From: Escherichia phage vB_EcoM_Lh1B
Length of the DNA: 64,000 bases
Reading direction: 5' to 3' (one strand)
Sequence record: OK428535.1
In this document: positions 32,409 to 63,209 of the stretch, piece after piece
Layout of the letters: every line of letters begins with the position of its first letter
Position numbering within the stretch: position 1 is the first letter of the stretch
Notes under the pieces: model-generated
Database searches by the model: none
What the model saw: the letters and a program-made list of their open reading frames with translations, nothing else
Told to the model about the DNA's origin: nothing
Translations under genes and position numbers: made by a program

Positions 32409-32726
32409 ATGTCTTTATTTCAAACCATTAAAAGTGCATTAGAGCGTAATGATGCAGACAGTGCCTTTACTGCGTTACAGAAAGCCAGTAACGGGAAGCT
32501 AGACAGCGTCTTTGCTAACAATCAAAGAATGCGCTTTTACAAAGTGGGGGAAGTAGACCAGTTCTACGACGAACTGTTTACGGGGGTAGTGCAAAGCGCG
32601 GTATACGCCATGCCGACTGAACAATTAAGTCAGTTTGAAAAAGGGATGCGTTACCAGCGGTTAAGTAACGACTACGCATTACTGAATCTGGCTATCGATG
32701 ACTGCGTCGTGCTGGTCGTATACTAA
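32409..32726 (+). CDS. hypothetical protein
   Basis: 105-aa ORF with GAGGAG RBS. Confidence 0.5.
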   Translation: MSLFQTIKSALERNDADSAFTALQKASNGKLDSVFANNQRMRFYKVGEVDQFYDELFTGVVQSAVYAMPTEQLSQFEKGMRYQRLSNDYALLNLAIDDCVVLVVY

Positions 32727-32732
32727 GTTTTT

Positions 32733-32751
32733 ACAGATAGATGTCATCTTA
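32733..32751 (+). promoter_or_regulatory. partial copy of the recurring intergenic motif (candidate phage promoter element)
   Basis: ACAGATAGATGTCATCTTA resembles the CTCAGA-YAGATATTATCTA motif seen upstream of other plus-strand genes. Confidence 0.25.
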
Positions 32752-32846
32752 GTGAGCATTGTGTATAAACCCACAGTCGCTTAAACACCAACTGTTCTTT
32801 AGTAACAGTTTTTGGTCGCTTTAGTGTACTTTAAAGGAAATACCAA

Positions 32847-34126: not shown

Positions 34127-34145
34127 CCGTAAAGAGTATTTAACC

Positions 34146-34727: not shown

Positions 34728-34736
34728 GGTGAGTGT

Positions 34737-35584: not shown

Positions 35585-35589
35585 TTTAT

Positions 35590-35630: not shown

Positions 35631-35663
35631 ACACTTAACTCAAATTAATTTGAGGTGTGGTAT

Positions 35664-36251
35664 ATGACAGAACGTATTTTACGACTGCAAGAGAACAAGT
35701 TAGAAGACCTGCACGTAATGCGTAGTCGTGGCTTGTTTCCGGTGGGGCTTGATGTGAGTGGATTATTAACTGCCGCAGAGCACGGGGATAGGGTCATTAC
35801 AATGCATTCGCGTGGGAGCGAAGTGGTCTCTGCGATTTTCATCGATAAGGTTATTCCAGACTCGGAAAGCGGTAGGGAGGCAGGACACATCATTTACGAA
35901 TACTTTCGCAGCATTCTATACGAGGAAAAGATAAATGTCAAAACTTTTATGGAGTACGCTAAGCGAAATAACTACATCGATGCGCGACTGATGGTCACGG
36001 AAGGCACCCCAACTATAAACGGTAAAGTCCATCATCGTTTACTTGGGGCGCAGTTGCCGAGACTGGGTGAGTTACCGACGNNGNTAGAGCTANACCAAAA
36101 AACAGATTGGCGACACAAAATCGAAGTGCTTCACAAGCTTTACGATTTATCGATCGTTCAAATCAAACTGGTGGACTTCACGCCTGCAAATATGCAAATC
36201 GCTAAGCGAGCATTGGGTTTTCGTATTCTTAACACAACCTTCACATTGTAA
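35664..36251 (+). CDS. hypothetical protein
   Basis: ATG at 35664 with GAGGTG RBS. Confidence 0.55.
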   Translation: MTERILRLQENKLEDLHVMRSRGLFPVGLDVSGLLTAAEHGDRVITMHSRGSEVVSAIFIDKVIPDSESGREAGHIIYEYFRSILYEEKINVKTFMEYAKRNNYIDARLMVTEGTPTINGKVHHRLLGAQLPRLGELPTXXELXQKTDWRHKIEVLHKLYDLSIVQIKLVDFTPANMQIAKRALGFRILNTTFTL

Positions 36252-36255
36252 AATA

Positions 36256-36277
36256 TCTCAGATATATATTACCTAGG
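36256..36277 (+). promoter_or_regulatory. recurring intergenic motif (candidate phage promoter element)
   Basis: TCTCAGATATATATTACCTAGG upstream of the secreted-protein gene cluster. Confidence 0.3.
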
Positions 36278-36302
36278 TGAGAGTTAAGAGATTAACTCAA
36301 CT

Positions 36303-36331
36303 GGCTACCCTCGGGTAGCCTATTCTTTTTT
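36303..36331 (+). terminator. rho-independent terminator
   Basis: GGCTACC-ctcg-GGTAGCC hairpin followed by TATTCTTTTTT. Confidence 0.5.
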
Positions 36332-36356
36332 AAACCAATCGACTATAGAGTAAAAC

Positions 36357-37236: not shown

Positions 37237-37258
37237 CTCAAAAAATTGAGGTACTATT

Positions 37259-37669: not shown

Positions 37670-37682
37670 GTAAGGAAACAAC

Positions 37683-38066
37683 ATGCGTGGACTTATGGGT
37701 ATTATCGCGGCGGTGTTCTTGACCGCTTCTGCTTCAGCTACAACCAGCGTAGAAGATTTACTGCCAGGCACACCGTATCAGTACAACCCGCCTTCATTCG
37801 AAGTCTGTACTGGCGACAATGGCAGATGTGAAGAAGTCAGCCGTCACGACGAGTATATCCTGGTCCACGCAAAGGGCGAGGAAACTTGTCCGGCTGGTTA
37901 CTACTTCTTGTTGAACTCAAAGGCACAAGAGATTGTGCCGGTAGAGACAATAACGTGCGACCCGACGCTTCGCGCGTCGCTCGCTTACAATACGAAAACC
38001 AAACAACGCCTCCTGGTTATTGAACAGCAAGGGGTGGTGCGTGGTTCAGTAGCGCTCGACCAGTAA
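37683..38066 (+). CDS. secreted Cys-containing protein (paralog family member C)
   Basis: Signal peptide MRGLMGIIAAVFLTASASA; similar Cys spacing (C.GDNGRC...C). Confidence 0.6.
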   Translation: MRGLMGIIAAVFLTASASATTSVEDLLPGTPYQYNPPSFEVCTGDNGRCEEVSRHDEYILVHAKGEETCPAGYYFLLNSKAQEIVPVETITCDPTLRASLAYNTKTKQRLLVIEQQGVVRGSVALDQ

Positions 38067-38076
38067 CCGAAAAGTT

Positions 38077-38100
38077 TTCAGACAGATGTTATAACGTGAG
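38077..38100 (+). promoter_or_regulatory. recurring intergenic motif (candidate promoter element)
   Basis: TTCAGACAGATGTTATAACGTGAG; variant of the CTCAGA-YAGATATTATCTA motif. Confidence 0.25.
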
Positions 38101-38120
38101 ATGACGACCCATCTCACTTT

Positions 38121-38166
38121 GGCCCTGCGGTGATTTCCCCAACACTTAGCCGCAGGGTCCTTTTTA
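38121..38166 (+). terminator. stem-loop / terminator
   Basis: GGCCCTGCGG ... CCGCAGGGTCC inverted repeat with 19-nt loop followed by TTTTT. Confidence 0.45.
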
Positions 38167-38195
38167 ATCGACTATTACTCGTAAGGATTAAGCAA

Positions 38196-38696
38196 ATGAA
38201 CATGAACATTCTCGACGATACCCGTTCTTCTTTCTTTACTCAGATGAACGTCAATCCCGAACGTACCCNTGCCATTCTTTCCACTGGCTGGAAGTTAAAG
38301 CTGTTAGGCGAGTTAACCCTAAACCGCACCGACTGGCCAGAAGAAGCGACCGTATTGATTAACAGCATTCACAGCGAGTGGCTAGATGCTGCGTTGAATG
38401 CCCCACAACTACGTCCGTACTATCGGATGCTTCATGCGGGTTATGAAGTATACCGCAAAGGTTGGTACGCTGCAGCCACTTATTGCAAAACCCCTGAAGG
38501 TCGTGAAGACAACACTGTCGACCACGTATTAGTAAACAATTTCTGGGGCGACCAAATCGAAGTCTTACAACTTTCCACCGGNGACCGTATTCCGGCCTGT
38601 GAGTTATTCGAAACTAACGCACAAATGTACGAACCATATGCAATGATTCGTGGCCGTAAGGTCCCAATCATTTCCCTTATGCATATGGGGCTGTAA
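38196..38696 (+). CDS. hypothetical protein
   Basis: ATG at 38196 with AAGGA RBS (track start 38130 lies inside the upstream stem-loop). Confidence 0.5.
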   Translation: MNMNILDDTRSSFFTQMNVNPERTXAILSTGWKLKLLGELTLNRTDWPEEATVLINSIHSEWLDAALNAPQLRPYYRMLHAGYEVYRKGWYAAATYCKTPEGREDNTVDHVLVNNFWGDQIEVLQLSTXDRIPACELFETNAQMYEPYAMIRGRKVPIISLMHMGL

Positions 38697-38704
38697 ATAC
38701 GAGA

Positions 38705-38733
38705 GGTAGCCCGTAGGCTACCTTCTTTTTTTG
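38705..38733 (+). terminator. rho-independent terminator
   Basis: GGTAGCC-cgta-GGCTACC hairpin followed by TTCTTTTTTT. Confidence 0.55.
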
Positions 38734-38750
38734 TTGAAGAAGGATTAAAC

Positions 38751-39377
38751 ATGAACGAGATTACCCTGATTCGTTTCATCGACGACATGGTGACGTGTCA
38801 GAAAGCGAATCGTCAGGATACCAAACTGCGTATCAATCTGATGGAAGAAGAGGTAGAAGGGTTTCTGGAATACCCGCGATTGGTGAAGTGGTTTAAAGAA
38901 GCGCTGCCGCGTAGCTGGGAACAGCTAGAAGCGTGGTTTGCTCTACCTATTGCAGAACGTAATCCCAATAATACGATCTTCACCGGAACTACTGCATTAG
39001 ATTTGGCTGGTTCGGTGGAGCAACCTAAACGTTTAGTTTTCTTCTACGTCAATGGCGATTCAATAATGGCTGATACAGTTAACTGGATTTCCGATGAGTT
39101 AACTGTAAACACCACTTTGGTCGGTAGCGCTGCTGATGCCTGGGTTGTTGGTCAGCACCAATCGCAACCGTACGAAGAAATCAAAACCGGTTATTTAATC
39201 CCGATATATCTCGACGGCGTGGCACCGGGTCGCAGCGCAGAACTGTTCAAATTCCTGCTTACTGAAACGTTAAAGGTTGTCGATTCTGATGCCGGGCGTG
39301 CGTGGTATGAATTAACCAAAGAGCGCACCGATAGTTTTTGGGAATCACTCGGACACCGTAAGTTTATTCCGCAATAA
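38751..39377 (+). CDS. hypothetical protein
   Basis: 208-aa ORF with AAGGA RBS. Confidence 0.55.
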   Translation: MNEITLIRFIDDMVTCQKANRQDTKLRINLMEEEVEGFLEYPRLVKWFKEALPRSWEQLEAWFALPIAERNPNNTIFTGTTALDLAGSVEQPKRLVFFYVNGDSIMADTVNWISDELTVNTTLVGSAADAWVVGQHQSQPYEEIKTGYLIPIYLDGVAPGRSAELFKFLLTETLKVVDSDAGRAWYELTKERTDSFWESLGHRKFIPQ

Positions 39378-39387
39378 CTCTCCTCTC

Positions 39388-39420
39388 TGGAACCCTTCGG
39401 GGTTCCATTTNTTCTTTTTT
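39388..39420 (+). terminator. rho-independent terminator
   Basis: TGGAACCC-ttcg-GGGTTCCA hairpin followed by a T-run. Confidence 0.55.
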
Positions 39421-39473
39421 ACGCATGACCTTTTGGATATGAACNNCTAATNCTTTCTCATTANAAGGCAAAC

Positions 39474-41984
39474 ATGCACAAGGTCGAACGTATCATTTTN
39501 AAAGNNTTTACCGGCATGGGGTTACATGAAANNNAAANNTTTGATTTCACCCTTAANTCAACCGTTACCANCATCCTCGGTGGCAACGGCTGCGGTAAAA
39601 CAAGCCTCCTGTCTGTTTTTCTCCCCTTAGCTCCAGCAAAATCAGAATTCCGTGAAGGTGGTTCCTACACTAACTACGCGTTAGTTGGGGACGACCGTCT
39701 TAAGTTTGAAGTCCTGCGTCGTGGCTCTTCTCTGTCTTGTAGTATTTTCAATATCACTAAAGGTGTCTCCATCGTAGACTCGGTAAACGCCAAAGTTTAC
39801 AACTCCATGGTGGAGCAATTAACCGGAATCACCAAAGAAATCAAAGAGTTAATTAATGGTGAGACCTTATTAACTGACGCCACTACCGAAGTTCGTCGTA
39901 AATGGTTTACGTTAATGTCAGAATCTGATCTGACGTACGTTGTTGGTTGCTATCGACGTTTGCGTAAACTCGCTTCCAGTTTAAGTGGGGCCATTGAGCA
40001 CACCGGCCGTAAAATCGGTGAGGCAAAAATGCGCGTGGTGGACGATGAAGAAGATCGTGCACGTTTAGAAGTTCGTTTGAAAGAACTCGATGCTGAGCTT
40101 CAGGAATTAAACCGCACAATTGAAGCGAGACCCGGTTTAGATAACGCCGTTTCGGTTGATAGTATCCGGAAACGCATTGCTTCGTTGCAACCGGCTGTAA
40201 AACTCATTATGGAACGTTATGGCGTTCTGCCTTCTGACGAACTGATTAACGAGTTTCAAAGTCGTGTGGTTGCCTGGCGTGAGCAAGCTGCCTCTGCTGA
40301 AACTGAATGCAACATGTACAATAAAGAGTTGTCACAGCTACTGGATGAGGAGTCGCGTCAAGCGTATCTGATGCGCAACCATACCGGTCTAAAACAAACA
40401 ATCGACAGCTTAAAACAGGAACTGGCAACGTTCCAACAGAACTGGATGTTCCCGGCTCTGTTTGAAGGTACCCGCATTGATGTGGATAGCATTCAGAACG
40501 CGTTAAACGATGCCTGTAACTGGAATTTACCGTTGTCCATGCATCTGGACCAGTTAAAGACAACAGATCGCCTGGGAGCGTTAGAGAAGCGTTTACAGGG
40601 TATGGATTTAACCTCTGCGGGTCTATCTGAAAAGCTGCAACGTTGTGAGAATGTGCTACACGGTTTATACCACGACCGTCAACACTTCTTAGAAACTGCA
40701 GAAGTTGATTGTCCACAGTGTAACCACCGTTTCCGTCCTGGGATTCGTAAGTCGTTACCTGAAATTGAAAAGGCCATCAACGATAATGAAGGTTGGAAGA
40801 AGCAGCTGAAAGACGAAATGGATAGTCTTTTGCGTGACCGCAAAGAGATTGAAGAGGACGTCCGTAGCTTACGTACGATTCGCGAAATCGTCATGTCGTA
40901 TTCCAACCATCCTGTTGTCGGTTTGTTTTTCCGTAAACTGCAGGAGCTGGATATCTTCACCACGGCGCGGGATCGTTACGGTGCCATTGCACGTGCCTTT
41001 ACTGAAGAGCTAGATTCGGCCATGATGTATCTGCGTCAATCGGCGAAGCTTGCAACAGCGGAACGGGAATGGCAAGAGGCTGTTGCCGCAGTAGGTAACG
41101 TTGATGGTGCGCTGAGCCAGAAAATTGAACATATCCGTTCACAACTGGACGGGGCTAACCGTCGACTGATAGAATACCGCAGACAAGCCAATGAGCTGGA
41201 ACGCGAAACCACCCAACTGCAACAAACCAAAGAAGCAATCGAACGTTTCCAAAAAGGCTACGAACATCTGGTATCGGAAATGAACATCTCCGTTAACAAC
41301 GTCGTGGTTCGTGAGTTGTTAAACCGACGCGAAGCGAAGCTCGATGCGTATACTTCAGCTCGTGAACGGTTTCGTCAAATGGAAGGGGCTATTGCACGTT
41401 TAGCGGAATTGGAAAAAGAGCAAGCTGAGTTGCTCAAAGAACACCATCNNGNCNGATTGATTATCAATGCCGTCTCACCCGAAAAAGGATTATTGCGTCG
41501 TTACTTTTATGCTGCGATTACCCGCATCATGGATTTAATGAATCGGTATATCGAAATGGTGTGGGCATATCCGATGCAGGTTATTCCATGCGATCTAACC
41601 GACGGGGATTTGGATTATACTTTCCCGGTGCGATTAAAAGACCATGAAGAACTGGTGCCGGATGTGAAGAAAGGTTCGAAGGCACAGCGTATTATCTTTA
41701 ACATGATGTTTCGTTTAACGGCGTATAAAGCGCTTGGTTTACAAAACTATCCTTTGTTNTTNGATNAANCCNCNNAAGGCATGGATGAANAACANAAAAA
41801 NCGCCTGGTCAACTTCTTTAAATCGTTGGNGTTGTTGGGGGAGTTTTCTNAANTGCTGGTCGTTTCGCATGAAGCGGAAGTTCATTCTAAACTTAACGAA
41901 GCCACCTACTGTGTCGTGGAGCCAGAAGGTGTAACGCTTCCACCGGTTTATAACGAAGGGGTAATAATCAAATATGCATCATAA
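39474..41984 (+). CDS. SbcC/Rad50-like recombination ATPase
   Basis: N-terminal Walker A ILGGNGCGKTSLL; very long central coiled coil with central CPQC zinc-hook-like motif; C-terminal Walker B/D-loop (..GMDE..) and LVVSHEAEV H-loop. Confidence 0.75.
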   Translation: MHKVERIIXKXFTGMGLHEXXXFDFTLXSTVTXILGGNGCGKTSLLSVFLPLAPAKSEFREGGSYTNYALVGDDRLKFEVLRRGSSLSCSIFNITKGVSIVDSVNAKVYNSMVEQLTGITKEIKELINGETLLTDATTEVRRKWFTLMSESDLTYVVGCYRRLRKLASSLSGAIEHTGRKIGEAKMRVVDDEEDRARLEVRLKELDAELQELNRTIEARPGLDNAVSVDSIRKRIASLQPAVKLIMERYGVLPSDELINEFQSRVVAWREQAASAETECNMYNKELSQLLDEESRQAYLMRNHTGLKQTIDSLKQELATFQQNWMFPALFEGTRIDVDSIQNALNDACNWNLPLSMHLDQLKTTDRLGALEKRLQGMDLTSAGLSEKLQRCENVLHGLYHDRQHFLETAEVDCPQCNHRFRPGIRKSLPEIEKAINDNEGWKKQLKDEMDSLLRDRKEIEEDVRSLRTIREIVMSYSNHPVVGLFFRKLQELDIFTTARDRYGAIARAFTEELDSAMMYLRQSAKLATAEREWQEAVAAVGNVDGALSQKIEHIRSQLDGANRRLIEYRRQANELERETTQLQQTKEAIERFQKGYEHLVSEMNISVNNVVVRELLNRREAKLDAYTSARERFRQMEGAIARLAELEKEQAELLKEHHXXXLIINAVSPEKGLLRRYFYAAITRIMDLMNRYIEMVWAYPMQVIPCDLTDGDLDYTFPVRLKDHEELVPDVKKGSKAQRIIFNMMFRLTAYKALGLQNYPLXXDXXXXGMDEXXKXRLVNFFKSLXLLGEFSXXLVVSHEAEVHSKLNEATYCVVEPEGVTLPPVYNEGVIIKYAS

Positions 41985-42165
41985 AGGTTGGCGCTTATGG
42001 GCTTGGTGGGGTTTCCAGTTCCTTCAGTTTGTTGTGATGGTACTGTACCTCTCCTTTTGTGCAACCGTAGTGGTTATCGCTGCGGTCGTTTATTTAGCTG
42101 CTGCTCTTAAAGAACGTCTGTTCGACACGCGTTGTGAGTGGCGAGATATGGGGGAACGGACATGA
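41974..42165 (+). CDS. small membrane protein (63 aa)
   Basis: One long hydrophobic segment FVVMVLYLSFCATVVVIAAVVYLAAAL; overlaps the SbcC-like stop. Confidence 0.4.
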   Translation: MHHKGWRLWAWWGFQFLQFVVMVLYLSFCATVVVIAAVVYLAAALKERLFDTRCEWRDMGERT

Positions 42166-42266
42166 TTGAAGGTATCGTATTAACCGGTATTGCACTGTGG
42201 TTGATTCGTGGTGCCTGGGGTTGGATTATCCGCACGAAAGGATGGGCGTTCCATGGCAACACGTAA
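42162..42266 (+). CDS. tiny TM peptide (34 aa)
   Basis: ATGA overlap with the upstream stop; MIEGIVLTGIALWLIRGAWGWIIRTKGWAFHGNT. Confidence 0.3.
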   Translation: MIEGIVLTGIALWLIRGAWGWIIRTKGWAFHGNT

Positions 42267-42444
42267 ACCACGTCGCTTAAAATCTTGGGNGGTTGTGGTA
42301 ATGCACACTGTAGTGTTGCTGGGTNTTTTCTTGTCTCGTGCCACNCCTGCCTTTTGGGGCTTAGTTGTTTTGGTGTTCTTAGAAGGGGTTTACTTCGGTA
42401 ATCTGTGGAGCAAGCCCCCCGNGTTTAAGGGACCCGGCTTATGA
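42253..42444 (+). CDS. small membrane protein (about 63 aa)
   Basis: ATG at 42253; two hydrophobic stretches (VVVMHTVVLLG, FWGLVVLVFLEGV); contains n. Confidence 0.35.
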   Translation: MATRKPRRLKSWXVVVMHTVVLLGXFLSRAXPAFWGLVVLVFLEGVYFGNLWSKPPXFKGPGL

Positions 42445-42572
42445 CAGTCGTGAATAGTGTCAACGCGGCGATGATTGNAACGGGTGCGTATGACGGTGCC
42501 ACATGGACAGATGTTGGTATCACGCTTATCATTTGCGCAATCGGAGCGTTTGTAGCAACATGGTTATTTTAG
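42441..42572 (+). CDS. tiny TM peptide (43 aa)
   Basis: ATGA overlap; C-terminal hydrophobic helix VGITLIICAIGAFVATWLF. Confidence 0.3.
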   Translation: MTVVNSVNAAMIXTGAYDGATWTDVGITLIICAIGAFVATWLF

Positions 42573-43018
42573 TGAAATGGGTTGGGTGTATCGTCTGTAG
42601 CCTGATACTAGGAGCGGGCGCATACGCCCTAGGCGCAATCCTTGCATTGACGCAAGGTTGGTTTTAACAGGAGGGTAATTACGAAGTGGGAGAAGTATCA
42701 TGTAACAGTGAAACAGTCTCTGATCCCGTGGTCGTGGGTTCAGGGGCGGCCGAGCCAACCCGGCGTATCGTTCTTTCGAGCGCGGGGATGGCTATAGGGT
42801 CTTCAAAGAACCTTCTAGCAGACATCGCGGAAGTCTGCGGGCCGGATGATTTTGCAGTTTCACGTACAGTCGGGGAAGACTGGCGTGGTAATCAGAAGCG
42901 CCATGAGCGAATGTGGCGACGGAAGGTTACCTCAGCATCGCGACGTTTTCAACGTCGTTGCTGATTATAGACACGGTTCCGATAGAGAACTGGTCTTCAC
43001 CTCTGGCGGTATACACCG

Positions 43019-43042
43019 CTTAAGTTTACCGGTAAACTTAAG
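43019..43042. promoter_or_regulatory. perfect 24-bp palindrome (candidate operator / protein-binding site)
   Basis: CTTAAGTTTACCGGTAAACTTAAG equals its own reverse complement; adjacent smaller inverted repeat GCGGT-ata-ACCGC at 43005-43018. Confidence 0.35.
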
Positions 43043-43110
43043 AAAACACAAACCCAATTCTTCGTTACTCNCTTTCATCGCAGGTGAAAGCTCACTTAGG
43101 AATTCAGCTC

Positions 43111-43599
43111 ATGGCCGAAATTGTCATTCTTTCCTCATCCTCAGATTTAACGGAAGCACAAAATAAACAGCTGTTGGGGCTGCATTATAAATTTCTGAAC
43201 CACCAACGTACCATACTCCATATCGAAAAAGGTGAGATTCCGAACCTCACTCTGGAGAAACTGTTGGCGGGGAACCGTGCTTGTGTTGCTCTGGAAGGGG
43301 GTACCCCTGTTGGTTACTGTTTGTATCGCGTAATCGCTGGGGTTCTGAAGATTCGTACGATGTTCGTGTCTGAAATGGCACGCCGTCGTAAAACGATGAC
43401 GCAGATTTTTGATGCGCTTGATGTGAATGNGCAGTTCACCAGTGCGCATGGGGGAATATACGCTTGCCAGGAAGCTGGTATTGCGTTCTTTACCNCTCGC
43501 GGTTTTGACAAGACCGTCTCTACAGACGGACAATGGCTTGAATTTAAGAAGCAGGTTCTTGCGGAAGCAGATGAACCTTTAAGGACTGCGGTAGCATAG
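43111..43599 (+). CDS. hypothetical protein
   Basis: ATG at 43111 with AGGAA RBS; 162 aa. Confidence 0.5.
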   Translation: MAEIVILSSSSDLTEAQNKQLLGLHYKFLNHQRTILHIEKGEIPNLTLEKLLAGNRACVALEGGTPVGYCLYRVIAGVLKIRTMFVSEMARRRKTMTQIFDALDVNXQFTSAHGGIYACQEAGIAFFTXRGFDKTVSTDGQWLEFKKQVLAEADEPLRTAVA

Positions 43600-43634
43600 T
43601 CCTGTTTTAGCACTCCTTACGATTATGCCTCACT

Positions 43635-43880
43635 ATGAGTGGGGTATTTTTTACGCGAGGAGTGCTATTTATGTTTCACCGTCCCGGGTTTTCAGCTTTA
43701 AACACCGATGTCTGTTGGGCTGAGTACGAGCGGGTGAAGGAGTTCTTACCCGTAAATCCTAAACACATCAACGTGGGTACTATCGGGCGTGTTGCGTTCG
43801 ATGACACTCCGCTGAGTACGTGTATTAAAGCTGCGCTTGGTACGCTGCCGGCGTCTATAGTGTTTGAGGAATTAAAATGA
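43635..43880 (+). CDS. hypothetical small protein
   Basis: 81-aa ORF ending with an ATGA overlap into the next gene. Confidence 0.4.
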   Translation: MSGVFFTRGVLFMFHRPGFSALNTDVCWAEYERVKEFLPVNPKHINVGTIGRVAFDDTPLSTCIKAALGTLPASIVFEELK

Positions 43881-44395
43881 CGGACATTCGTGTTGACATA
43901 TATGGGGAAATTCATACCACGGCCGATCGTAATCGTGTTGAATGGGCTATCATCGATAACCATCGGAAAAAACCATACGATTTTTTACTGTGTGAAGAAC
44001 TGGGGCCGTATGAACATCACACTGCAAAAGCGCAAGATAAGGCATTAAAGGAGAAGATGTACTCTATTGGACCCATGGGGCTGGAGTTGGCTAAGAAACT
44101 CGGCATCCCTGCTATTGGGATCGATGACTGGAGCGACGCAACCTACGCTAAAGATATCAAGGATAAAAAGGGAATGGCTGTAAACTTTAGCCGTTCTTTT
44201 TATATTNGTGAAACTAAAATGGTTGCAAAAATTAAAAAGTATATGGCAAAAGGGCGTTGTGCTGTTATGCTTGGCGACTCACACTTGCGCACCACGAAAA
44301 CTAAAGAGCTTGGTGATGCGTCCCTTATCTGGGAAACGTTTAAGGATAATCCTGAAGTGAAGTTTCACAGGAGCCCTAAACGCGAGATTGATTAA
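43877..44395 (+). CDS. hypothetical protein
   Basis: 172-aa ORF. Confidence 0.55.
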   Translation: MTDIRVDIYGEIHTTADRNRVEWAIIDNHRKKPYDFLLCEELGPYEHHTAKAQDKALKEKMYSIGPMGLELAKKLGIPAIGIDDWSDATYAKDIKDKKGMAVNFSRSFYIXETKMVAKIKKYMAKGRCAVMLGDSHLRTTKTKELGDASLIWETFKDNPEVKFHRSPKREID

Positions 44396-44413
44396 ATCTA
44401 AAGGAGCATTAAA

Positions 44414-44836
44414 ATGGTTACCGCTATTCGCGAAACAAAATCACTATACGATCATTTATCAGAAGAAGAAACAGCCTTATTCTACGACCTGTTACCTGAA
44501 ACCAAAGCAAATGTTCAGTGGTGGTTACGTTTAGCGCTACGTGATAAAGTTGGGGAAACGCCGGTTAGTATTCTCGCACACACGTTGGACATGACACCCA
44601 TGATTGAAATCGCGATTACCCGCCCTAAATTCTGGCGACCTGGTATGGTGCGTGAGGCGTATCTACTCCAACGCTTAGGTGTTGACCCGGAGAAGTGTTG
44701 GCGTAAGATGGACGACCATCGCTACCGTGAAGAAATTACGAATAGCCTCAACACTATGTTGGCAATGAAACGACTCGGTATCGAANACGAAGGTTTCGAG
44801 TCTGCGGTGCAAGCGTGGGTGAGAAGGAATAGCTAA
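44414..44836 (+). CDS. hypothetical protein
   Basis: 140-aa ORF with AAGGAG RBS. Confidence 0.55.
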   Translation: MVTAIRETKSLYDHLSEEETALFYDLLPETKANVQWWLRLALRDKVGETPVSILAHTLDMTPMIEIAITRPKFWRPGMVREAYLLQRLGVDPEKCWRKMDDHRYREEITNSLNTMLAMKRLGIEXEGFESAVQAWVRRNS

Positions 44837-45085
44837 ATGCAAAAAACAATCATCGGAATAATGGTTAGTTCTTTCTGTGGTTTCCCTACCCCGCAGACAG
44901 AACCCCAATATTTGGGCGCAGGCAAACCTGATCCGGAAGTCCGTAAGTTGCGCGAAGAAGCAAAAGCCAGAGTTCTTACTGAGCTGGAATCGTTGCTTCA
45001 GTCTCCGGTTATTTCACAATGGGGTATGGCAATAGATGTCACTCGAACTGATCGACGAGGCTATTATCTCCCACGACCTGTTTAA
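44837..45085 (+). CDS. hypothetical small protein (overlaps next gene by 50 nt)
   Basis: 82-aa ORF with AGGAA RBS. Confidence 0.35.
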   Translation: MQKTIIGIMVSSFCGFPTPQTEPQYLGAGKPDPEVRKLREEAKARVLTELESLLQSPVISQWGMAIDVTRTDRRGYYLPRPV

Positions 45086-45536
45086 CGCGCCTGAGCGCTT
45101 CAAGGTCGTTACAGTTAACTGTGTTGGTGCAATGGGAAGGGGCATTGCCTTGGCGTGCCGAGAACGCTTCCCATCGCTTTATAATGACTATCGCCAGAAA
45201 TGTCGTAAAGAGCAAATCGTTATCGGTGAGGTCTATTGTTATCCTGAGGAAGGGGTAATACTCCTTCCTACTAAAACCCATTTTCGCTATAAATCGCAGA
45301 TTTACTATGTCACGTCCGGCATTGATGCGCTGGCGCGACTAGGGGAAGACTTAGAAGGAGGGATTGCGATACCNCCCCTAGGGATGGCTAACGGTTGGTT
45401 ACGTTACCATGAGCGATTGGAAATCTTTATACACTTACAGAAACGACTACAGCACACGGAGCAGACTTATCGATTCTATTTACCAGACACCCTGCTGAGG
45501 GAAGCAGAGAAAATCATCCCAAAAAGTTTCAAATAG
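45036..45536 (+). CDS. macrodomain protein, Macro_2/TARG1 (OARD1)-like; probable ADP-ribosyl hydrolase
   Basis: HDLFNAPE...VNCVGAMGRGIALACRERFP...IGEVYCY...LLPTK...PLGMANGW follows the TARG1 pattern GDLF.CP...C.....MGAGIA..F...F...GEV..L...K...IGCGLD (recalled from memory). Confidence 0.55.
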   Translation: MSLELIDEAIISHDLFNAPERFKVVTVNCVGAMGRGIALACRERFPSLYNDYRQKCRKEQIVIGEVYCYPEEGVILLPTKTHFRYKSQIYYVTSGIDALARLGEDLEGGIAIXPLGMANGWLRYHERLEIFIHLQKRLQHTEQTYRFYLPDTLLREAEKIIPKSFK

Positions 45537-45551
45537 ATATTATTATCAGGG
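45530..45551 (+). promoter_or_regulatory. recurring intergenic motif (candidate promoter element)
   Basis: CAAATAGATATTATTATCAGGG, overlapping the stop of the macrodomain gene. Confidence 0.25.
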
Positions 45552-45635
45552 CACATTACAAAGGAGCACAATGCCGTCCGCGCCGTCTTCCCGGATTGGG
45601 AACGGAAAAGTATAAATCCGTTTGGAGATACATCC

Positions 45636-46358
45636 ATGTTTCNCACCATTTTATTTCTTCTGGTAGCAGTGACCACATTCAACAGCAACGCTTCTTACCA
45701 GACCACCAGTAACAAACACCAAAAAGAATTCGTCCTTATCCAGGACCAGTTCAATGAGATTAAACCTCTCATCGTCACCGCATCTCGAAAACAAGGCGTA
45801 CATGCCGGGATGCTCGCGACCACCATTTATCGTGAATCCCGTTTTAATAAAAACGTGGGTAAGAATAAATCGAGCAGTGCTAGTAGTGTTGTCCAAATGA
45901 CGACAGGCACTAAACGCTCCATGATACGTCTGTATGGGAAACAACTTAACATCCCAAAGAATGCGGACCTTAATAAACCGAAGTATGCTGTACAGCTTGC
46001 TGCCGTTTACATGAAACACATCGAGGATCATCTGACAAAACAACTCAAACGCAAGCCGAGCACAGCCGAAATCGCTTTAGGCTATCGCTTCGGTGAGGGT
46101 GCCGCTGTTGCGATGATTAAAAAGAAATCACCGGTCGGGAAACGCTGGATGGCNNGCNACNGAAAAGACGCAGCATTCTACGGTGCGAAAATGACACCAC
46201 CGAAAGNTGAAANACNNCNGNTTNNNTTTGNGNAGGNAGNCCANGNCCAACGNGTCGCCGAACTTCAGAAAATCTGGGATACGCTGTACACCAAAATATC
46301 ACCTGCGGCCGGTACATTACTGGCAAATAACACTATCATGAAAGGAGCATTGCTATGA
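45636..46358 (+). CDS. SLT-domain lytic transglycosylase-like protein with N-terminal signal peptide
   Basis: Hydrophobic N-terminus; YRESRFNKNVG...SSASSVVQMTTGT...YAVQLAAVYMKH...ALGYRFGEG matches the ES / Q-M / AYN-G motif order of SLT domains; n-rich C-terminal part. Confidence 0.5.
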   Translation: MFXTILFLLVAVTTFNSNASYQTTSNKHQKEFVLIQDQFNEIKPLIVTASRKQGVHAGMLATTIYRESRFNKNVGKNKSSSASSVVQMTTGTKRSMIRLYGKQLNIPKNADLNKPKYAVQLAAVYMKHIEDHLTKQLKRKPSTAEIALGYRFGEGAAVAMIKKKSPVGKRWMXXXXKDAAFYGAKMTPPKXEXXXXXFXXXXXXQXVAELQKIWDTLYTKISPAAGTLLANNTIMKGALL

Positions 46359-51554: not shown

Positions 51555-51560
51555 AAACTC

Positions 51561-51597
51561 CCTCTTACCTTCGGGTAAGAGGGGATTTCCTTTTTTA
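51561..51597 (+). terminator. rho-independent terminator
   Basis: CCTCTTACC-ttcg-GGTAAGAGG hairpin followed by a T-run. Confidence 0.6.
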
Positions 51598-51614
51598 NNT
51601 TAATANTCAATANT

Positions 51615-51629
51615 GTGATATATAATCTC
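51615..51629 (+). promoter_or_regulatory. recurring intergenic motif (candidate promoter element)
   Basis: GTGATATATAATCTC upstream of the exonuclease gene. Confidence 0.25.
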
Positions 51630-51642
51630 NTGGNGAGTTGAA

Positions 51643-53877: not shown

Positions 53878-54618
53878 ATGTTGCGAGTCGTGAGTGAATC
53901 GCTCACGCTCCACACACAAAGTCTGATTAACTGTGTGGAGCAATACGGATGGATGTCGTGGATGGCAACGAACCGTGAGTTTGGTGCTGCGCCCATGGAA
54001 GATTACGACGTGTTGTACAAGTGGGGATTTGAAGCGGCTTGTGATGTTGTGGCAGAGCTGGTTACCGAAACAATTGCGCGTTACAACGCAAGATGTGATG
54101 AACCGATGCCTAAACAAGTCCCGCCGCAAATACCTCCGCTACCGACAATCGATCGTGAGCATTGTCGAATCTGGACAATGGAAGAGTTGTACGACGAACA
54201 CGTTAGAATGCTGAAACCGAACGAGCTAATAACCGGTGCGTTGAACTGGTTCTTACATCGTTTCTGGACAGAGTTGGTCGATGTGGCGGGTGACGAAGAT
54301 AATTGTTCTCAGGTTATTTGGTACGATCGAGCGATGTTTCATCGCAGTCTTAAAGATCGTAGTCTCTGCAACCTGTATATTGTTGACCCGTGTGAAGACA
54401 TTGTAAAGGTTGCAGAAGGTAACTCTTATTCCGACTTGGTGATGCCCGTGGTAGAAAAACCGATGGGTATTTTCCTGCAGGGNGACGNTTGGGTTTTAAC
54501 GGATGATATCTCGGGCTACCTGCTGGACCCGGATGACATTCACTCGGACGAACCTGATACCATCGAGTATTTTCACTTTACAGAACAGGCAGCACGCTTC
54601 TTGCATCTCTTAAAGTAA
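53878..54618 (+). CDS. hypothetical protein
   Basis: ATG at 53878; N-terminus MLRVVSESL is paralogous to that of CDS 55802-56209. Confidence 0.5.
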   Translation: MLRVVSESLTLHTQSLINCVEQYGWMSWMATNREFGAAPMEDYDVLYKWGFEAACDVVAELVTETIARYNARCDEPMPKQVPPQIPPLPTIDREHCRIWTMEELYDEHVRMLKPNELITGALNWFLHRFWTELVDVAGDEDNCSQVIWYDRAMFHRSLKDRSLCNLYIVDPCEDIVKVAEGNSYSDLVMPVVEKPMGIFLQXDXWVLTDDISGYLLDPDDIHSDEPDTIEYFHFTEQAARFLHLLK

Positions 54619-54619
54619 T

Positions 54620-54640
54620 CTGAGATAGATATTATCTACA
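54620..54640 (+). promoter_or_regulatory. recurring intergenic motif (candidate promoter element)
   Basis: CTGAGATAGATATTATCTACA, preceded by TTGCAT at 54601. Confidence 0.3.
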
Positions 54641-54671
54641 GGGACGTAACCTTAAGGAGAATTTATTCACG

Positions 54672-55406
54672 ATGCTTAAAGTCGAAGTGCCAGTGCTTTT
54701 AAACCTCACGCCCCAGTTCTTTGAAGCGTTGTTCGAAAAGCATTGGCCCGCGTTCGCGAAGAACGAACTAAAGGATAACCCACAGTGGTATCCACTGCGC
54801 GATGAATTCAAGTACACAGCCATCAACGTCTGTATAGAAGTCTTCACTGCGTGGTTACAAGAGATGTACGACTGCATCAACACCGAACGGTTGTTCACGC
54901 TAGAACATGTAGAGATTAATGTTGTTGACGTCTACGAAGGTTACACCTACGAAGAAGGCATTACTGCCACGGGGTTAAGCCAACAAGACGTTGAAGAACA
55001 AATCTTTGCGTGGATCGAGTGGTTCACGGAAAAGTTGATGCTGGCTGATTTTGTCACGCAGGTGGAAGATGTATTCATCCCAATGTACGAGCGGTTAGCT
55101 GAGATACGTCGTAACCATCGTCTGCTCGGTTACTGGTATGACACTTATACCACCTCCTCAACATTGTGGTCTTCCGCTACTGCCGCATTTGGCATAACTG
55201 AAGGCGATTACGATGTCATTCATTCCGGCCCTTGGCAGTATGGTTTCGGCACCCTGTGGCACGAGCTGACCGATGCCATGTGCCTGGACTTTTATCTGTG
55301 TGGAGGTAAGTTTTACACGGATAACTGCGTGAGCCAAATTCCGAATGGTGCGATGGTGGTGATGTGTCGCATCCGTAAAGAAGTCGCTGAGAAACTAAAC
55401 TACTGA
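54672..55406 (+). CDS. hypothetical protein
   Basis: 244-aa ORF with AAGGAG RBS. Confidence 0.55.
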   Translation: MLKVEVPVLLNLTPQFFEALFEKHWPAFAKNELKDNPQWYPLRDEFKYTAINVCIEVFTAWLQEMYDCINTERLFTLEHVEINVVDVYEGYTYEEGITATGLSQQDVEEQIFAWIEWFTEKLMLADFVTQVEDVFIPMYERLAEIRRNHRLLGYWYDTYTTSSTLWSSATAAFGITEGDYDVIHSGPWQYGFGTLWHELTDAMCLDFYLCGGKFYTDNCVSQIPNGAMVVMCRIRKEVAEKLNY

Positions 55407-55419
55407 AGGAGTATTTAAA

Positions 55420-55791
55420 ATGACGCAAGACGAATTTGAAACGATGGTAAAACAGTATTACAAAGAAGGGACTATTCTGTACATAGTCGCACCCGAGAGC
55501 GAAAACTGGTTGACGTTATCGTCGCGGGTAACCACCCTACGCGGCCCAGTTTCTCAAGAAATAAGACAGATGGCTCGTATAGTTCGAGATACCGCCATCC
55601 AGGGCGGTAAAGTCGTCAGCTTCTCCCACCTCTCTCCGATCGGCCACTCTAACTTAGAAACCGAAGTTGATGTCGTTGCTACTGTTGGTTTTGATTTAGA
55701 TGGCTCTCCAGGCTCGAACCTTGTCGTGATTAAGAAATGGCGTGGATACGATGCAATCCCATCGCCAGGGGTGTGGCCGGCAACCAACTAG
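55420..55791 (+). CDS. hypothetical protein
   Basis: 123-aa ORF with AAGGAG RBS. Confidence 0.5.
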   Translation: MTQDEFETMVKQYYKEGTILYIVAPESENWLTLSSRVTTLRGPVSQEIRQMARIVRDTAIQGGKVVSFSHLSPIGHSNLETEVDVVATVGFDLDGSPGSNLVVIKKWRGYDAIPSPGVWPATN

Positions 55792-55801
55792 AGGGGTCGC
55801 T

Positions 55802-56209
55802 ATGTTAAAGGTGTATAGCGAGTCATTGATGGACTTGCAAGAGTATCTAAAGCATGTGGAAATTAACGGCAACCGTGGAATGATATACTCCATGGTTGTC
55901 GAGATTTTAATTAAAATCGTGCTTGTTTCATTCCACGTAGCAGAAAATGGCACTGCTGTACCAGGAGATGTTTATAAAGGCGTTATTAAGCATCTTAGCG
56001 AGCGCTACAGTTGTTTACGTGAACCGGATATCTTTAATGAGGTGCAGCGTGTTGTGTTGCTTATCCTCGACAACCGTGAAGACTTGGCGTACAAGCTTGC
56101 GCATGAATTGGCAGACACGTCACAGCACGGTGGACAACTGAAATATAACGTTGTGGATCTCGTAGCGTGCAGATACTGGTATACGCAGCCCGAGGTAAGT
56201 AACTTTTAA
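55802..56209 (+). CDS. hypothetical protein
   Basis: ATG at 55802 with GAGGGG RBS; N-terminus MLKVYSESL. Confidence 0.5.
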   Translation: MLKVYSESLMDLQEYLKHVEINGNRGMIYSMVVEILIKIVLVSFHVAENGTAVPGDVYKGVIKHLSERYSCLREPDIFNEVQRVVLLILDNREDLAYKLAHELADTSQHGGQLKYNVVDLVACRYWYTQPEVSNF

Positions 56210-56219
56210 GGAGCATTAG

Positions 56220-56759
56220 ATGCAAATCGTAATTGACTTCGCTCTGTCGGAGTCGAGACGTCAGCTAGATGAAATTCTGTTAGGATTAAAACGTGACGTG
56301 GAATTTGAACTTCACGATGCGTTGGCCGTCCACGAAAATCGTTTGTCTGACGAAATAGGTTCGGGTGTAGATGTGGCTATCTGTGACACTGGGGATATGG
56401 TAAATCAGCTTATTGAACGTATGTTCACGCGGCTGCGTAACATTCTGAACTATCCCCATCGTTTTGAACTGGTAGAAGGGACGGACCAAATCACCGACTT
56501 ATTGAGTGAAGCCTTTGATAAGGTTGGTGAATCTCTGGCGGGGTTACATCAAGAGAACCTGGGCGAGACATATGTTGCTGTGGTCATTAACGGGCAAACG
56601 TCGAACGTTACGGATACGGTAACATGGTCCGATATCGTTGACCAGCCAATCATTGACAAAATCACCAAGCTGTATCNTGAGGCGGAGATGAAGGTGCTGG
56701 CTATCTGTCGTCGCGAACTGCTCTATCTCGGCGAGAAATATGGGAAACCTGTTGAATGA
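56220..56759 (+). CDS. hypothetical protein
   Basis: 179-aa ORF with AAGGAG RBS. Confidence 0.55.
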   Translation: MQIVIDFALSESRRQLDEILLGLKRDVEFELHDALAVHENRLSDEIGSGVDVAICDTGDMVNQLIERMFTRLRNILNYPHRFELVEGTDQITDLLSEAFDKVGESLAGLHQENLGETYVAVVINGQTSNVTDTVTWSDIVDQPIIDKITKLYXEAEMKVLAICRRELLYLGEKYGKPVE

Positions 56760-57298
56760 AAATATTCATTGATTTACTCGATGACGAATTTCGTGAAATA
56801 TTTCCAGCGGCGTTGTTCGAGTTTAAGCGTAAGTGTGAAGACTATCTGATACCGAAGAATATCGATCGTCAACACCTCGCTGGACTTATCTCTGCGGCGT
56901 ACGTCAATATCGCGGTAAATGAAGTTCATCAACTCGCGCAACGTATTGCGTGTTTCGAATACAACGACGAAGACATTGAAGACGGCTTCCTGCAGTCTAA
57001 GATGGGTCGCTTCTCACTCGAACTCAAGACCGATGAGGTTATTGATAAGGTCGGTAAAGCCTTTGATGAAATGAAGGACATCGAAATGATGATTAAGATG
57101 TCTGGACCGGAAGCAGGCCCATTGAAAGAAGCGTGGGAACATCTCAACCGCGACGAGTATAAAGAGATGTACATGGGTGAGTTCACCACCATGCTACGTC
57201 ACCTCGAAGCACAGGTCTGGGAGCATATCGTTTCACGTCTGAAAGAAATACTGATTGTGATTGAGCCAATGCAGCCACTCGCTATTAGTAAATTCTAG
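56756..57298 (+). CDS. hypothetical protein
   Basis: 180-aa ORF, ATGA overlap. Confidence 0.55.
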   Translation: MKIFIDLLDDEFREIFPAALFEFKRKCEDYLIPKNIDRQHLAGLISAAYVNIAVNEVHQLAQRIACFEYNDEDIEDGFLQSKMGRFSLELKTDEVIDKVGKAFDEMKDIEMMIKMSGPEAGPLKEAWEHLNRDEYKEMYMGEFTTMLRHLEAQVWEHIVSRLKEILIVIEPMQPLAISKF

Positions 57299-57302: not shown

Positions 57303-57337
57303 ACGGACACTCTTCGGGGTGTCCGTAGTTTTATTTT
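57303..57337 (+). terminator. rho-independent terminator
   Basis: ACGGACAC ... GTGTCCGT hairpin followed by AGTTTTATTTT. Confidence 0.55.
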
Positions 57338-57366
57338 AATCGACCATTAATCTAAAGGAGTATTAA

Positions 57367-61049: not shown

Positions 61050-61325
61050 ATGCGTTATCAGAAAGATATTGTAGAGCGTCTGTGTCTGGGTCTCGCTGGT
61101 ATTAGCCAGGAACTTAGCACCGCGTTCCATAACGAGTTCTCAGCACCGCGACATGCACTGTCTGAATTTAGTCATCAGGTAAATGCCCATTACGGCAACC
61201 TGATTAATGATAAACCGAAGGTTGATGCGGTCGGTGTGCCTGAACACAATGAAGATATCCCGTACTGGATTGAAGACCTGGAACGTGTGGTTCTTCCAGT
61301 GCTCCGTGAGAGGATGAAAAAATGA
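61050..61325 (+). CDS. hypothetical protein
   Basis: 91-aa ORF. Confidence 0.5.
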   Translation: MRYQKDIVERLCLGLAGISQELSTAFHNEFSAPRHALSEFSHQVNAHYGNLINDKPKVDAVGVPEHNEDIPYWIEDLERVVLPVLRERMKK

Positions 61326-61990
61326 GATTAGACCCGGCACGGCGAAAAAAAGCAGAAGCTTATGCTTTACAGTTACTGAACTTAGTTGACCCGACCGGGA
61401 TTAACGCGGAAGCTGCCAAGCGCGCTTTCTCACGAATGTCTGACGAAGAGTTCAATCGTCTGCGCGAAGGGTTGCCTGTTTACAACCCAACTGGTGNCAA
61501 GGTCAAAATTGACCATATGCGCAATATTAAAATTTGCGAAGCGATGGGACTGAACTTGTGTCAGCGCCTGTGGCTCACGGAACCGAAAACCGGTATCCTG
61601 CAGCGTACCCGTTACCCCCATTTAGTCTTCCGCCTGCCTGCACGTCGCCAGACGCAGATGCAAGAGAAGAAAATGGCGGTGGCGAAGAACGATAAAGTCC
61701 GCGATAAACTCTCAGGTCAGGTAGTAGGGCCTTCCAAAGCTTCGGGTGTTTCGTTTCCAGAAGCGTACATCATGTACTCGGATGGACACGACTCAACGCT
61801 CCAGGAGTTCCTGTGGGCGCGTGGTGGTAACGATACGTTACAACGTGCGTTCTATCAATCGCTACGGCAAACCGGTAAAGGTCGCATCAACCTGGAAGGG
61901 GCTGAGCGTACCAGTTCAAAAGCGCCGCGTACATGGTCTTCGTACTTTAAAGCAATGCACATCGGTAACAACTTAGGACGCCCGGAATGA
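61322..61990 (+). CDS. hypothetical protein
   Basis: 222-aa ORF, ATGA overlap. Confidence 0.55.
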   Translation: MRLDPARRKKAEAYALQLLNLVDPTGINAEAAKRAFSRMSDEEFNRLREGLPVYNPTGXKVKIDHMRNIKICEAMGLNLCQRLWLTEPKTGILQRTRYPHLVFRLPARRQTQMQEKKMAVAKNDKVRDKLSGQVVGPSKASGVSFPEAYIMYSDGHDSTLQEFLWARGGNDTLQRAFYQSLRQTGKGRINLEGAERTSSKAPRTWSSYFKAMHIGNNLGRPE

Positions 61991-63133: not shown

Positions 63134-63157
63134 GGGATAACCTCATCTCAAAAAGAA

Positions 63158-63179
63158 CTCAGACAGATATTATCTATCC
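63158..63179 (+). promoter_or_regulatory. recurring intergenic motif (candidate promoter element)
   Basis: CTCAGACAGATATTATCTATCC upstream of CDS 63210. Confidence 0.3.
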
Positions 63180-63209
63180 GAGACAACATCTCATAATAGG
63201 ATAACACCT

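Follow-up and report, generated by a model that had tools for sequence, protein, structure and literature searches.

Candidate early promoters of an SPN3US-like jumbo phage share the core and start-site spacing of phiKZ and AR9 early promoters

The early promoters of the Pseudomonas phage phiKZ are said to be read by its virion RNA polymerase, a result credited to Ceyssens in 2014, and Lavysh in 2016 reportedly showed an early motif for every jumbo phage that encodes its own RNA polymerase (RNAP). A review of these phages states that each of them carries a bioinformatically detectable motif upstream of its early operons, which is AT-rich, about 10 nt long and located near -10, and that wherever transcripts have been profiled this motif is an early promoter read by the virion polymerase (PMC7598289). 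In AR9 the early promoter was defined by dRNA-seq and primer extension as AAATATATATTAT-(6N)-G+1 and is independent of protein synthesis, and in phiKZ and phiR1-37 the transcription start likewise lies 6 nt past an AT-rich element (PMC5312081). The genes of the non-virion RNAP are early genes in both phiKZ and AR9, transcribed by the virion polymerase, or vRNAP (PMC7598289, PMC13282480), and an early promoter motif with a primary transcription start site has been reported for PHIKZ054 (PMC8244752). The jumbo-phage virion RNAP has no sigma homolog (PMC5312081, PMC13282480). Since no such enzyme had been purified as of 2017, its recognition of promoters was deduced from chloramphenicol and rifampicin experiments on phiKZ and AR9 (PMC5312081).

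Here we describe a family of sites with a similar architecture in Escherichia phage vB_EcoM_Lh1B (sequence record OK428535.1). The stretch analysed, hereafter the window, is 64,000 nt long and contains 315 scattered N letters. A 6-kb piece around the index site, at 54,620 to 54,640, matches about 30 SPN3US-type Salmonella jumbo phages, including JN03, SPN3US and the SPFM series, at 97-99% identity, and a few Erwinia phages at 60-80%. These phages, which belong to Seoulvirus and its relatives, are phiKZ-like and have two phage-encoded multisubunit RNA polymerases. Position 52000 of the window corresponds to JN03 180829 on the same strand, and the complete genome of this close relative allowed us to follow the sites beyond the window. 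In the literature searched we found no 5'-end or time-course transcript data for SPN3US-type phages, and no printed version of the consensus described below.

The initial annotation had listed seven close variants of an intergenic motif of about 20 nt, and all seven sequences are present at their coordinates. Six of them can be aligned without gaps over more than 30 nt and form one sharp family, in which the aligned element is longer than first described, at about 34 nt. The seventh, GTGATATATAATCTC at 51615-51629, does not belong with them: it scores less than 5 in the window and less than 10 in JN03, it lacks the upstream half of the element, the near-invariant T at -9 is broken, and the orthologous spacer in the Erwinia phage Asesino holds nothing similar. 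The family is well separated from background. The 13-mer YAGATATTATCTA with up to two mismatches gave 11 matches in the window against 1.8 expected, and the refined 16-mer CAGATAKATATTAYCT with up to three mismatches gave 7 against 0.97; none of 100 shuffles reached the observed count in either case. A weight matrix of 34 columns, covering -32 to +2, returned exactly six sites in the window with scores of 21.2-43.1, against a best score per sequence that averaged 5.5 and peaked at 19.4 in 200 random Markov-1 sequences of 64 kb. All six sites are on the plus strand upstream of a plus-strand gene, and where they are not fully intergenic, the overlap is confined to the final codons of the preceding gene. 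The core is also partly matched at 19215, within a gene on the minus strand, but the flanks are missing and the match is a chance one. Scanning viral contigs for the exact 16-mer gave 68 loci, mostly single chance matches in unrelated contigs, together with about ten contigs of jumbo size. An Rfam search of the whole window returned no family.

A scan of the JN03 genome found 24 sites, with scores of 21.5-38.4 and all on the plus strand, and the next-best scores, at most 15.3, arose mainly where the palindromic core of a true site was matched on the opposite strand. Each of the 24 lies upstream of a plus-strand gene, the start codon being 11-261 nt away (median about 50 nt), and 23 are intergenic in a genome that is roughly 95% coding. 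The description of the sites as intergenic and placed before plus-strand genes thus holds for the six members in the window and extends to JN03, and the equal frequency inside genes that the initial annotation had named as a sign against its reading is not what we observed. The single intragenic copy, at JN03 25949, does count against an early reading. The confinement to the 32-64 kb part that had been noted is real within the window and does not carry over to the genome, as the JN03 copies are spread across four regions.

We built the consensus on the 24 JN03 sites, numbering the conserved G as +1. The element consists of an A-tract, TTT, CAGATA, G or T, ATATTAT/C, CT, four variable bases and G(+1)A. 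An A at -29 is found in 24/24 sites and is followed by an A-rich stretch from -28 to -24 and a T-rich one from -23 to -21. The block C-A-G-A-T-A occupies -20 to -15, and -14 is G in 17 sites and T in 7. From -13 to -8 the sequence reads ATATTA, where A-13, T-12, T-10 and A-8 are invariant (24/24), with T or C at -7 and CT at -6 and -5. The four bases from -4 to -1 are weakly conserved, and they lead to the G at +1, which stands exactly 6 nt past the ATATTAT/C core in 23/24 sites, and an A at +2 in 20/24. The ATATTAT/C core, spanning -13 to -7, corresponds to the conserved AT-rich stretch, some 10 nt long with its centre near -10, by which jumbo-phage early promoters are recognised (PMC7598289). 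The sites fall into two sub-classes, CAGATAGATATTATCT, whose core TAGATA-T-TATCTA is a dyad, and CAGATATATATTACYTAGGTGAGAG; the dyad is restricted to the one sub-class, and the flanks are strongly asymmetric. This near-perfect dyad in the main sub-class counts against a pure promoter reading, in that the sites may have an operator role as well.

The first predicted promoter in the window, ACTAAGTTTTTACAGATAGATGTCATCTTAGTGA at 32722..32755 on the plus strand (matrix score 34.9, predicted +1 at G 32754), is predicted to drive a 412-aa gene at 32847-34085; its ortholog is at JN03 161313 and a syntenic copy is at Asesino 162896. Its leader (32754..32814, plus strand) is predicted to fold into a 5'-terminal stem-loop at 32754-32782 and, by fold prediction, a weak A/T-rich hairpin at 32790-32810 followed by a T-run, and Asesino retains both hairpins, though the stems differ in sequence. 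The second, TGTAAAATATCTCAGATATATATTACCTAGGTGA at 36247..36280 (plus strand, predicted +1 at G 36279), has the best score of the window at 43.1 and a core of the phiKZ type, TATATTAC, with an ortholog at JN03 165078 and a syntenic copy at Asesino 166019. Its leader, 36281..36331 on the plus strand (fold z = -3.99), contains a 5' stem-loop at 36281-36298 and then, from both terminator calling and folding, a hairpin resembling an intrinsic terminator at 36303-36320, followed by TATTCTTTTTT. A stop at this hairpin is predicted to give an RNA of about 53 nt, and read-through would continue into the genes at 36357-38066.

The third predicted promoter, CCGAAAAGTTTTCAGACAGATGTTATAACGTGAG at 38067..38100 on the plus strand, is the weakest member, its score of 21.2 being barely above the random maximum of 19.4, and the predicted +1 is G 38098 or A 38099. 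It has an ortholog at JN03 166898 and is the sole site lacking an Asesino counterpart, which together with the low score counts against an early reading. Its leader (38098..38166, plus strand; fold z = -4.32) begins with a 5'-terminal stem-loop at 38098-38115 and continues with a long G+C-rich hairpin at 38121-38159 that precedes CTTTTT, with a predicted short RNA of about 68 nt. The gene that follows has its real start codon at 38196, as the PHROG match covers the long open reading frame only from residue 23 onwards and the JN03 annotation agrees.

The fourth, CCCAAAAAGTTTCAAATAGATATTATTATCAGGG at 45518..45551 (plus strand, score 30.2, predicted +1 at G 45550), overlaps the stop codon of a macro-domain gene and has a syntenic copy at Asesino 177188. 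Downstream lies an SLT transglycosylase ('endolysin') gene at 45636-46358, in which the SLT domain was found; an early function for this lysin is not obvious, and this too counts against an early reading. A 14-codon upstream open reading frame at 45570-45614 is not conserved in Asesino, and we discarded it. The index site itself forms the fifth predicted promoter, TTAAAGTAATCTGAGATAGATATTATCTACAGGG at 54610..54643 on the plus strand (score 36.0, predicted +1 at G 54642), with a leader of 30 nt to the ATG at 54672 and an operon at 54672-57298 that ends in a terminator near 57305. The sixth, TCAAAAAGAACTCAGACAGATATTATCTATCCGA at 63148..63181 (plus strand, score 37.8, predicted +1 at G 63180), sits in a divergent intergenic region, with a 5' stem-loop at 63180-63192, a leader of 30 nt to the ATG at 63210 and a syntenic copy at Asesino 195721. 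Apart from the SLT transglycosylase, the genes downstream of the sites (5/6) belong to PHROGs of unknown function.

[quoted passage not shown] A gp218 homolog is encoded in the window at 61322..61990 on the plus strand (PHROG 3233, 'RNA polymerase beta subunit', E = 1.2e-93), and we propose that it is a subunit of the polymerase that would read the motif promoters. No early-type promoter was found directly upstream of this gene, and the vRNAP genes have no motif copy directly upstream. Motif copies do immediately precede SPN3US gp34-gp35 and, in a tandem pair, gp76-gp77, where gp35 is a beta' fragment and gp77 a beta N-terminal fragment of the non-virion RNAP (PMC5105663). Rpb2 and Rpb1 domains are found at JN03 29750-34092. 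Judged from these genes and from the 97-99% identity to SPN3US-type phages, the genome encodes both a virion-packaged multisubunit RNAP and a second, non-virion one. Two further copies, also in tandem, precede a 617-aa gene at JN03 16142-17995, which lies just upstream of a PHIKZ055 homolog (JN03 18249-19586, E = 2e-42) and is separated from it by a strong terminator. Synteny with the PHIKZ055 homolog hints that the 617-aa gene may be the chimallin, or PHIKZ054, homolog, but BLASTP detected no similarity, and the gene has no PDB and no Pfam match. An annotated structural gene is the first downstream gene at 0/24 JN03 sites. The motif in JN03 is therefore placed as in an early operon, before non-virion RNAP genes and not before virion structural genes.

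The six sites are very probably early promoters, at which the virion-packaged RNA polymerase of an SPN3US-like jumbo phage starts transcription, although here it is from sequence that we infer the start site, the early timing and the identity of the reading polymerase. The vRNAP would be injected from the virion together with the DNA, acting alone or with co-injected factors. It would bind the extended element from -32 to -5, recognising the AT-rich ATATTAT/C at -13 to -7 and also the CAGATA block (-20 to -15) and the A-tract (-29 to -24), and initiate at the conserved G, six bases past the core. Neither the host sigma-70 polymerase nor new protein synthesis would be needed. The first phage mRNAs from the window would then yield small early proteins of unknown function, and those from elsewhere in the genome the subunits of the non-virion polymerase, which would subsequently take over middle and late transcription.

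The leaders provide a separate view of the start site. We folded the first 26 nt from the predicted +1 and counted stems of at least 5 bp that start at nucleotide 1-2. Such +1-anchored stems were found at 9/24 JN03 sites and 10/23 Asesino sites; among 300 sets of random 26-mers starting with GA the mean was about 2 and the highest count 7, and the observed count fell to 1-6 when the start was shifted by 3-10 nt. Orthologous stems often differ in sequence while the pairing is kept, as in GATAGA...TCTATC versus GAGAGA...TCTCTC, or GAGAGTTAA...TTAACTC versus GAGCATTGA...TCAATGCTT. Selection for a stem that begins at one particular base would be expected if that base were the 5' end of the RNA, and the conserved G, 6 nt past the element, probably marks the transcription start. 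The 5'-terminal hairpins plausibly guard the early mRNAs against 5'-end-dependent decay. At the sites at 32733, 36256 and 38077 a hairpin with a T-run lies in the leader, 25-45 nt downstream. Terminator-like hairpins after three of the six window sites would abort many transcripts, which counts against an early reading. In phiKZ more than 90% of transcripts are cut short at a terminator in a 5'UTR, which leaves a 71-nt RNA (PMC10914365), and since this is the same arrangement, conditional termination or short RNAs would be expected here.

Both the sequence and the placement of the sites are conserved between genera. We scanned the whole genome of Asesino, an Erwinia phage of the genus Erskinevirus, and retained sites scoring above 17. 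There are 23, all on the plus strand and syntenic with 23/24 JN03 sites, so that the two genera have almost the same set of promoter sites. SPAsTU, pEa_SNUABM_29 and Asesino all retain the motif at the index site, with flanking genes that are about 66% identical and an adjacent 3' coding sequence that diverges. That the sites are retained across genera shows that purifying selection acts on the sequence of the motif as well as on its placement.

The proposal of a phage-specific promoter class in the initial annotation is thus borne out by the restriction to one strand, the intergenic position, the fixed distance to G, the conservation across genera and the homology to mapped promoters. Its suggestion that this class might be middle or late would make the motif a promoter of the non-virion RNA polymerase, and this we consider very unlikely. 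The motif is clearly phage-specific and directional, as such a promoter would be, and one copy precedes the SLT lysin gene. Some AR9 genes carry both early and late promoters (PMC5312081), and timing cannot for this reason be read from position alone. The known elements of the second polymerase are nevertheless of another kind. Late promoters of phiKZ have TATG at the start site, its middle promoters a weak AT-rich or TACT motif at about -22 to -24, and the late promoters of AR9 are AACA-(6N)-TA/G (PMC7598289, PMC8244752), whereas the consensus here contains no such element and has (g)(t)G(+1)A as its start region, where TATG is not conserved. Early motifs of these phages can be detected bioinformatically, but the middle and late promoters of the non-virion polymerase cannot (PMC7598289). 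Both the core and its spacing equal those of mapped early promoters, an architecture shared by AR9, phiKZ and phiR1-37, and the motif precedes the non-virion polymerase's own genes and no annotated structural gene. A middle or late assignment is most likely wrong because the non-virion RNAP genes must be expressed before the enzyme for middle and late transcription exists.

The initial annotation had offered a second option, a binding site for a phage transcription factor, and the motif could accordingly be an operator for a dimeric DNA-binding protein such as an early repressor, instead of or besides being a promoter. The 6-1-6 dyad TAGATA-T-TATCTA in the core of the main sub-class is what such a protein might bind, and a gene annotated as 'putative transcriptional regulator' (JN03 96904-97269) is itself preceded by the motif. 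However, the dyad is not kept in the other sub-class, with CAGATATATATTACCTAGG or TATATTAC, or at the phiKZ sites, and the information in the element is asymmetric over -32 to +2, running from the A-tract at one end to G(+1)A at the other. All 47 sites (24 in JN03 and 23 in Asesino) are on one strand, which a symmetric operator does not need, and 5'-terminal RNA stems begin at a fixed distance downstream. As the primary role of the motif, binding of a transcription factor therefore has little to recommend it, and we regard the operator explanation overall as very improbable. That the sites are instead immediate-early promoters of host sigma-70, with TATTAT as the -10 and the A-tract as an UP-like element, is most improbable: TATTAT at -12 to -7 does lie at the correct distance from the conserved G, an A-rich tract is present upstream and some RNAP-encoding jumbo phages are rifampicin-sensitive (PMC7598289), but a sigma-70 scan called 0/6 sites on the plus strand, in keeping with the poor fit remarked on earlier, sigma-70-like sites were not enriched in the window (15 versus 18.2 expected in shuffles), a -35 hexamer is lacking, conservation peaks (CAGATAG, -20 to -14) within the would-be spacer, and the element is common to phiKZ in Pseudomonas and AR9 in Bacillus, where early transcription is rifampicin-resistant.

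For early promoters read by the virion polymerase, the leaders offer one further and rather doubtful idea, that the promoter is the first piece of a conserved leader module, new for these phages, in which it is followed by the +1 stem-loop, terminators in some leaders (predicted to give RNAs of about 53-68 nt, at window 36279-36331 and 38098-38166) and a second box, TCGACYAT. In such a module the pairing of the +1 stem-loop would be kept by compensatory changes between genera. The TCGACYAT box is conserved about 8 nt upstream of the Shine-Dalgarno sequence. JN03 has 8 copies and Asesino 10, all of them on the plus strand; the window copies start at 38168 and 57340, and 36339 holds a variant. 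It is found in many motif leaders and also after plain terminators. If the module is real, TCGACYAT could mark a second regulatory layer, of which it would be the first signal detectable from sequence, either as a promoter or factor site for the non-virion polymerase or, alternatively, as an RNA-level site for the translation or processing of early mRNAs.

The promoter class is already known from phiKZ and AR9 and, according to the review, occurs in every such phage (PMC7598289), so that the finding is sound but ordinary and leaves the known view of jumbo-phage transcription unchanged. The syntenic conservation of 23/24 sites between genera, the +1-anchored stems and the TCGACYAT box may be new. 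What the sites add is a map of predicted early transcription units for SPN3US-type phages, with six starts in the window and 24 in the genome. These phages serve as a genetic model for giant nucleus-forming phages and are candidates for biocontrol of Salmonella and Erwinia. The map could be used in genome annotation, in choosing early genes for studies of host takeover, and as a source of templates for reconstituting the poorly characterised virion RNAP.

Among the systems with which the sites can be compared, the T4 promoters do not fit, as neither the MotA box nor the late TATAAATA promoter matches in sequence. Coliphage N4 is similar in that a virion-carried polymerase reads the early genes from phage-specific sites, and a stem of 5 bp with a 3-nt loop is conceivable in the core of the main sub-class. 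The N4 enzyme differs in being a single-subunit, T7-like polymerase that recognises a DNA hairpin. Hairpin recognition of the N4 kind is unlikely here because the dyad is not kept across the sub-classes or in phiKZ. The phage phiR1-37 has an extended AT-rich (A/dU-rich) consensus that was predicted and then confirmed by RNA-seq, with the start 6 nt downstream (PMC4848604). It is a uracil-DNA phage.

Comparison with the promoters of related phages, which the initial annotation had put forward as a check, shows the same core and the same 6-nt spacing to G in AR9 and phiKZ. Eleven of the 13 core positions are shared between the AR9 promoter and AGATAGATATTAT or AGATATATATTAC. AR9 has 41 such promoters, shown to be chloramphenicol-independent (PMC5312081), against 24 sites here. 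It differs in having uracil-containing DNA, no phage nucleus and a Bacillus host, and the upstream part of its promoter is purely A/T, whereas G-18 and C-20 are invariant here. For phiKZ we examined the plus-strand TATATTAC sites in the first 50 kb of the genome. All seven are intergenic and upstream of plus-strand genes, preceding gp005, 006, 010.1, 031, 036, 041.3 and 054, and all seven are preceded by an A-tract and AGAT and followed at exactly 6 nt by G. The differences from phiKZ are that most sites here read GATATTATCT and not TATATTACTA, that the conserved CAGATA block is longer and is accompanied by a GTGA start region, that the start sites here are predicted, and that the hosts are Salmonella and Erwinia in place of Pseudomonas. 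Against these stand an upstream A/T tract, AGAT, a TATATTAC-type core, 6 nt and G in the same order, an intergenic position on the leading strand before early genes, and terminators in the 5'UTR, predicted here, that in phiKZ give short RNAs of about 70 nt (PMC10914365). At the window site at 36256 the 8-mer core is identical, as TATATTAC-(6N)-G, and the early-promoter architecture of phiKZ and AR9, an AT-rich core followed after 6 nt by G, is conserved in the enterobacterial members of the group.

The early-type promoters, the approximately 34-nt motif that we infer to be recognised by the virion RNA polymerase (vRNAP), fall into two sub-classes, a dyad-symmetric CAGATAGATATTATCT form and a CAGATATATATTACYTAGGTGAGAG form, which set the site at 36247-36280 against the other five in the window. 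The CAGATATATATTACYTAGGTGAGAG form has an 8-mer core in common with phiKZ and, genome-wide, usually precedes a 5' hairpin and a TCGAC[CT]AT box, as if the three made up a duplicated leader cassette. The site at 51615-51629, proposed in the initial annotation as a variant of the motif and judged not to belong to this family, lies in a spacer (51555-51642) containing several N characters, which reduces its apparent similarity. The window as a whole holds 315 such isolated characters, most concentrated in the stretches 0-8, 30-32 and 46-54 kb; by their appearance they are ambiguous base calls or masked positions, not gaps.

The TCGAC[CT]AT sequence forms a second conserved box, followed after approximately 6-10 nt by AAGGAG and then by a start codon. 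Plus-strand copies lie at 38168-38175 and 57340-57347 in the window, with a variant at 36339-36346. In the complete genome of JN03, a close SPN3US-type Salmonella phage, we located eight (24568, 58925, 67784, 96875, 116948, 186169, 223698 and 224577) and in the Erwinia phage Asesino a further ten, every one of them on the plus strand; the core itself divided 20 to 5 between the strands in JN03 and 19 to 5 in Asesino. Many early-type leaders contain the box, and it is also found immediately past ordinary terminators. The box may serve as a second promoter or as a site for a factor, or may instead act at the RNA level.

G+C-rich hairpins with T-runs, resembling intrinsic terminators, were enriched (31 against 12.4 expected from shuffles) and are interspersed along the plus-strand gene array, often with TTTTTTA after them. 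Examples from 32000-46000 and elsewhere in the window are 34096-34112, 35590-35616, 38703-38724, 39388-39407 and 57305-57325.

One early-type promoter lies directly upstream of an SLT-domain transglycosylase annotated as an endolysin (45518-46358 together), an arrangement kept in Asesino. A lysin would not be expected among the early products. Within the leader of this gene, 86 nt in length, lies an ORF of 14 codons that has a good Shine-Dalgarno sequence; this ORF is not conserved in Asesino. A 222-aa plus-strand ORF at 61322-61990 matches PHROG 3233, 'RNA polymerase beta subunit' (E = 1e-93), and corresponds to SPN3US gp218, the virion RNA polymerase fragment that covers the C-terminal part of beta; its JN03 counterpart is annotated only as 'virion structural protein 22'.

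Outside the window, two tandem early-type promoters (JN03 15976 and 16069) precede a 617-aa gene (16142-17995), itself just upstream of the homolog of PHIKZ055, a non-virion RNA polymerase gene. In size and position the 617-aa gene agrees with PHIKZ054, the gene for the nuclear shell of phiKZ. Since BLASTP, Pfam and PDB sequence searches returned no similarity, its putative assignment as a chimallin, from position and size, is unproven.

Three predicted early transcripts begin with a 5'-terminal stem-loop and run within 25-65 nt into a terminator-like hairpin and T-run (36279-36331, 38098-38166 and, more weakly, 32754-32814), the first two folding with z = -4.0 and -4.3, respectively. With this arrangement, either short RNAs of approximately 53 and 68 nt would be released or read-through would be conditional; a similar RNA of 71 nt is documented in phiKZ.
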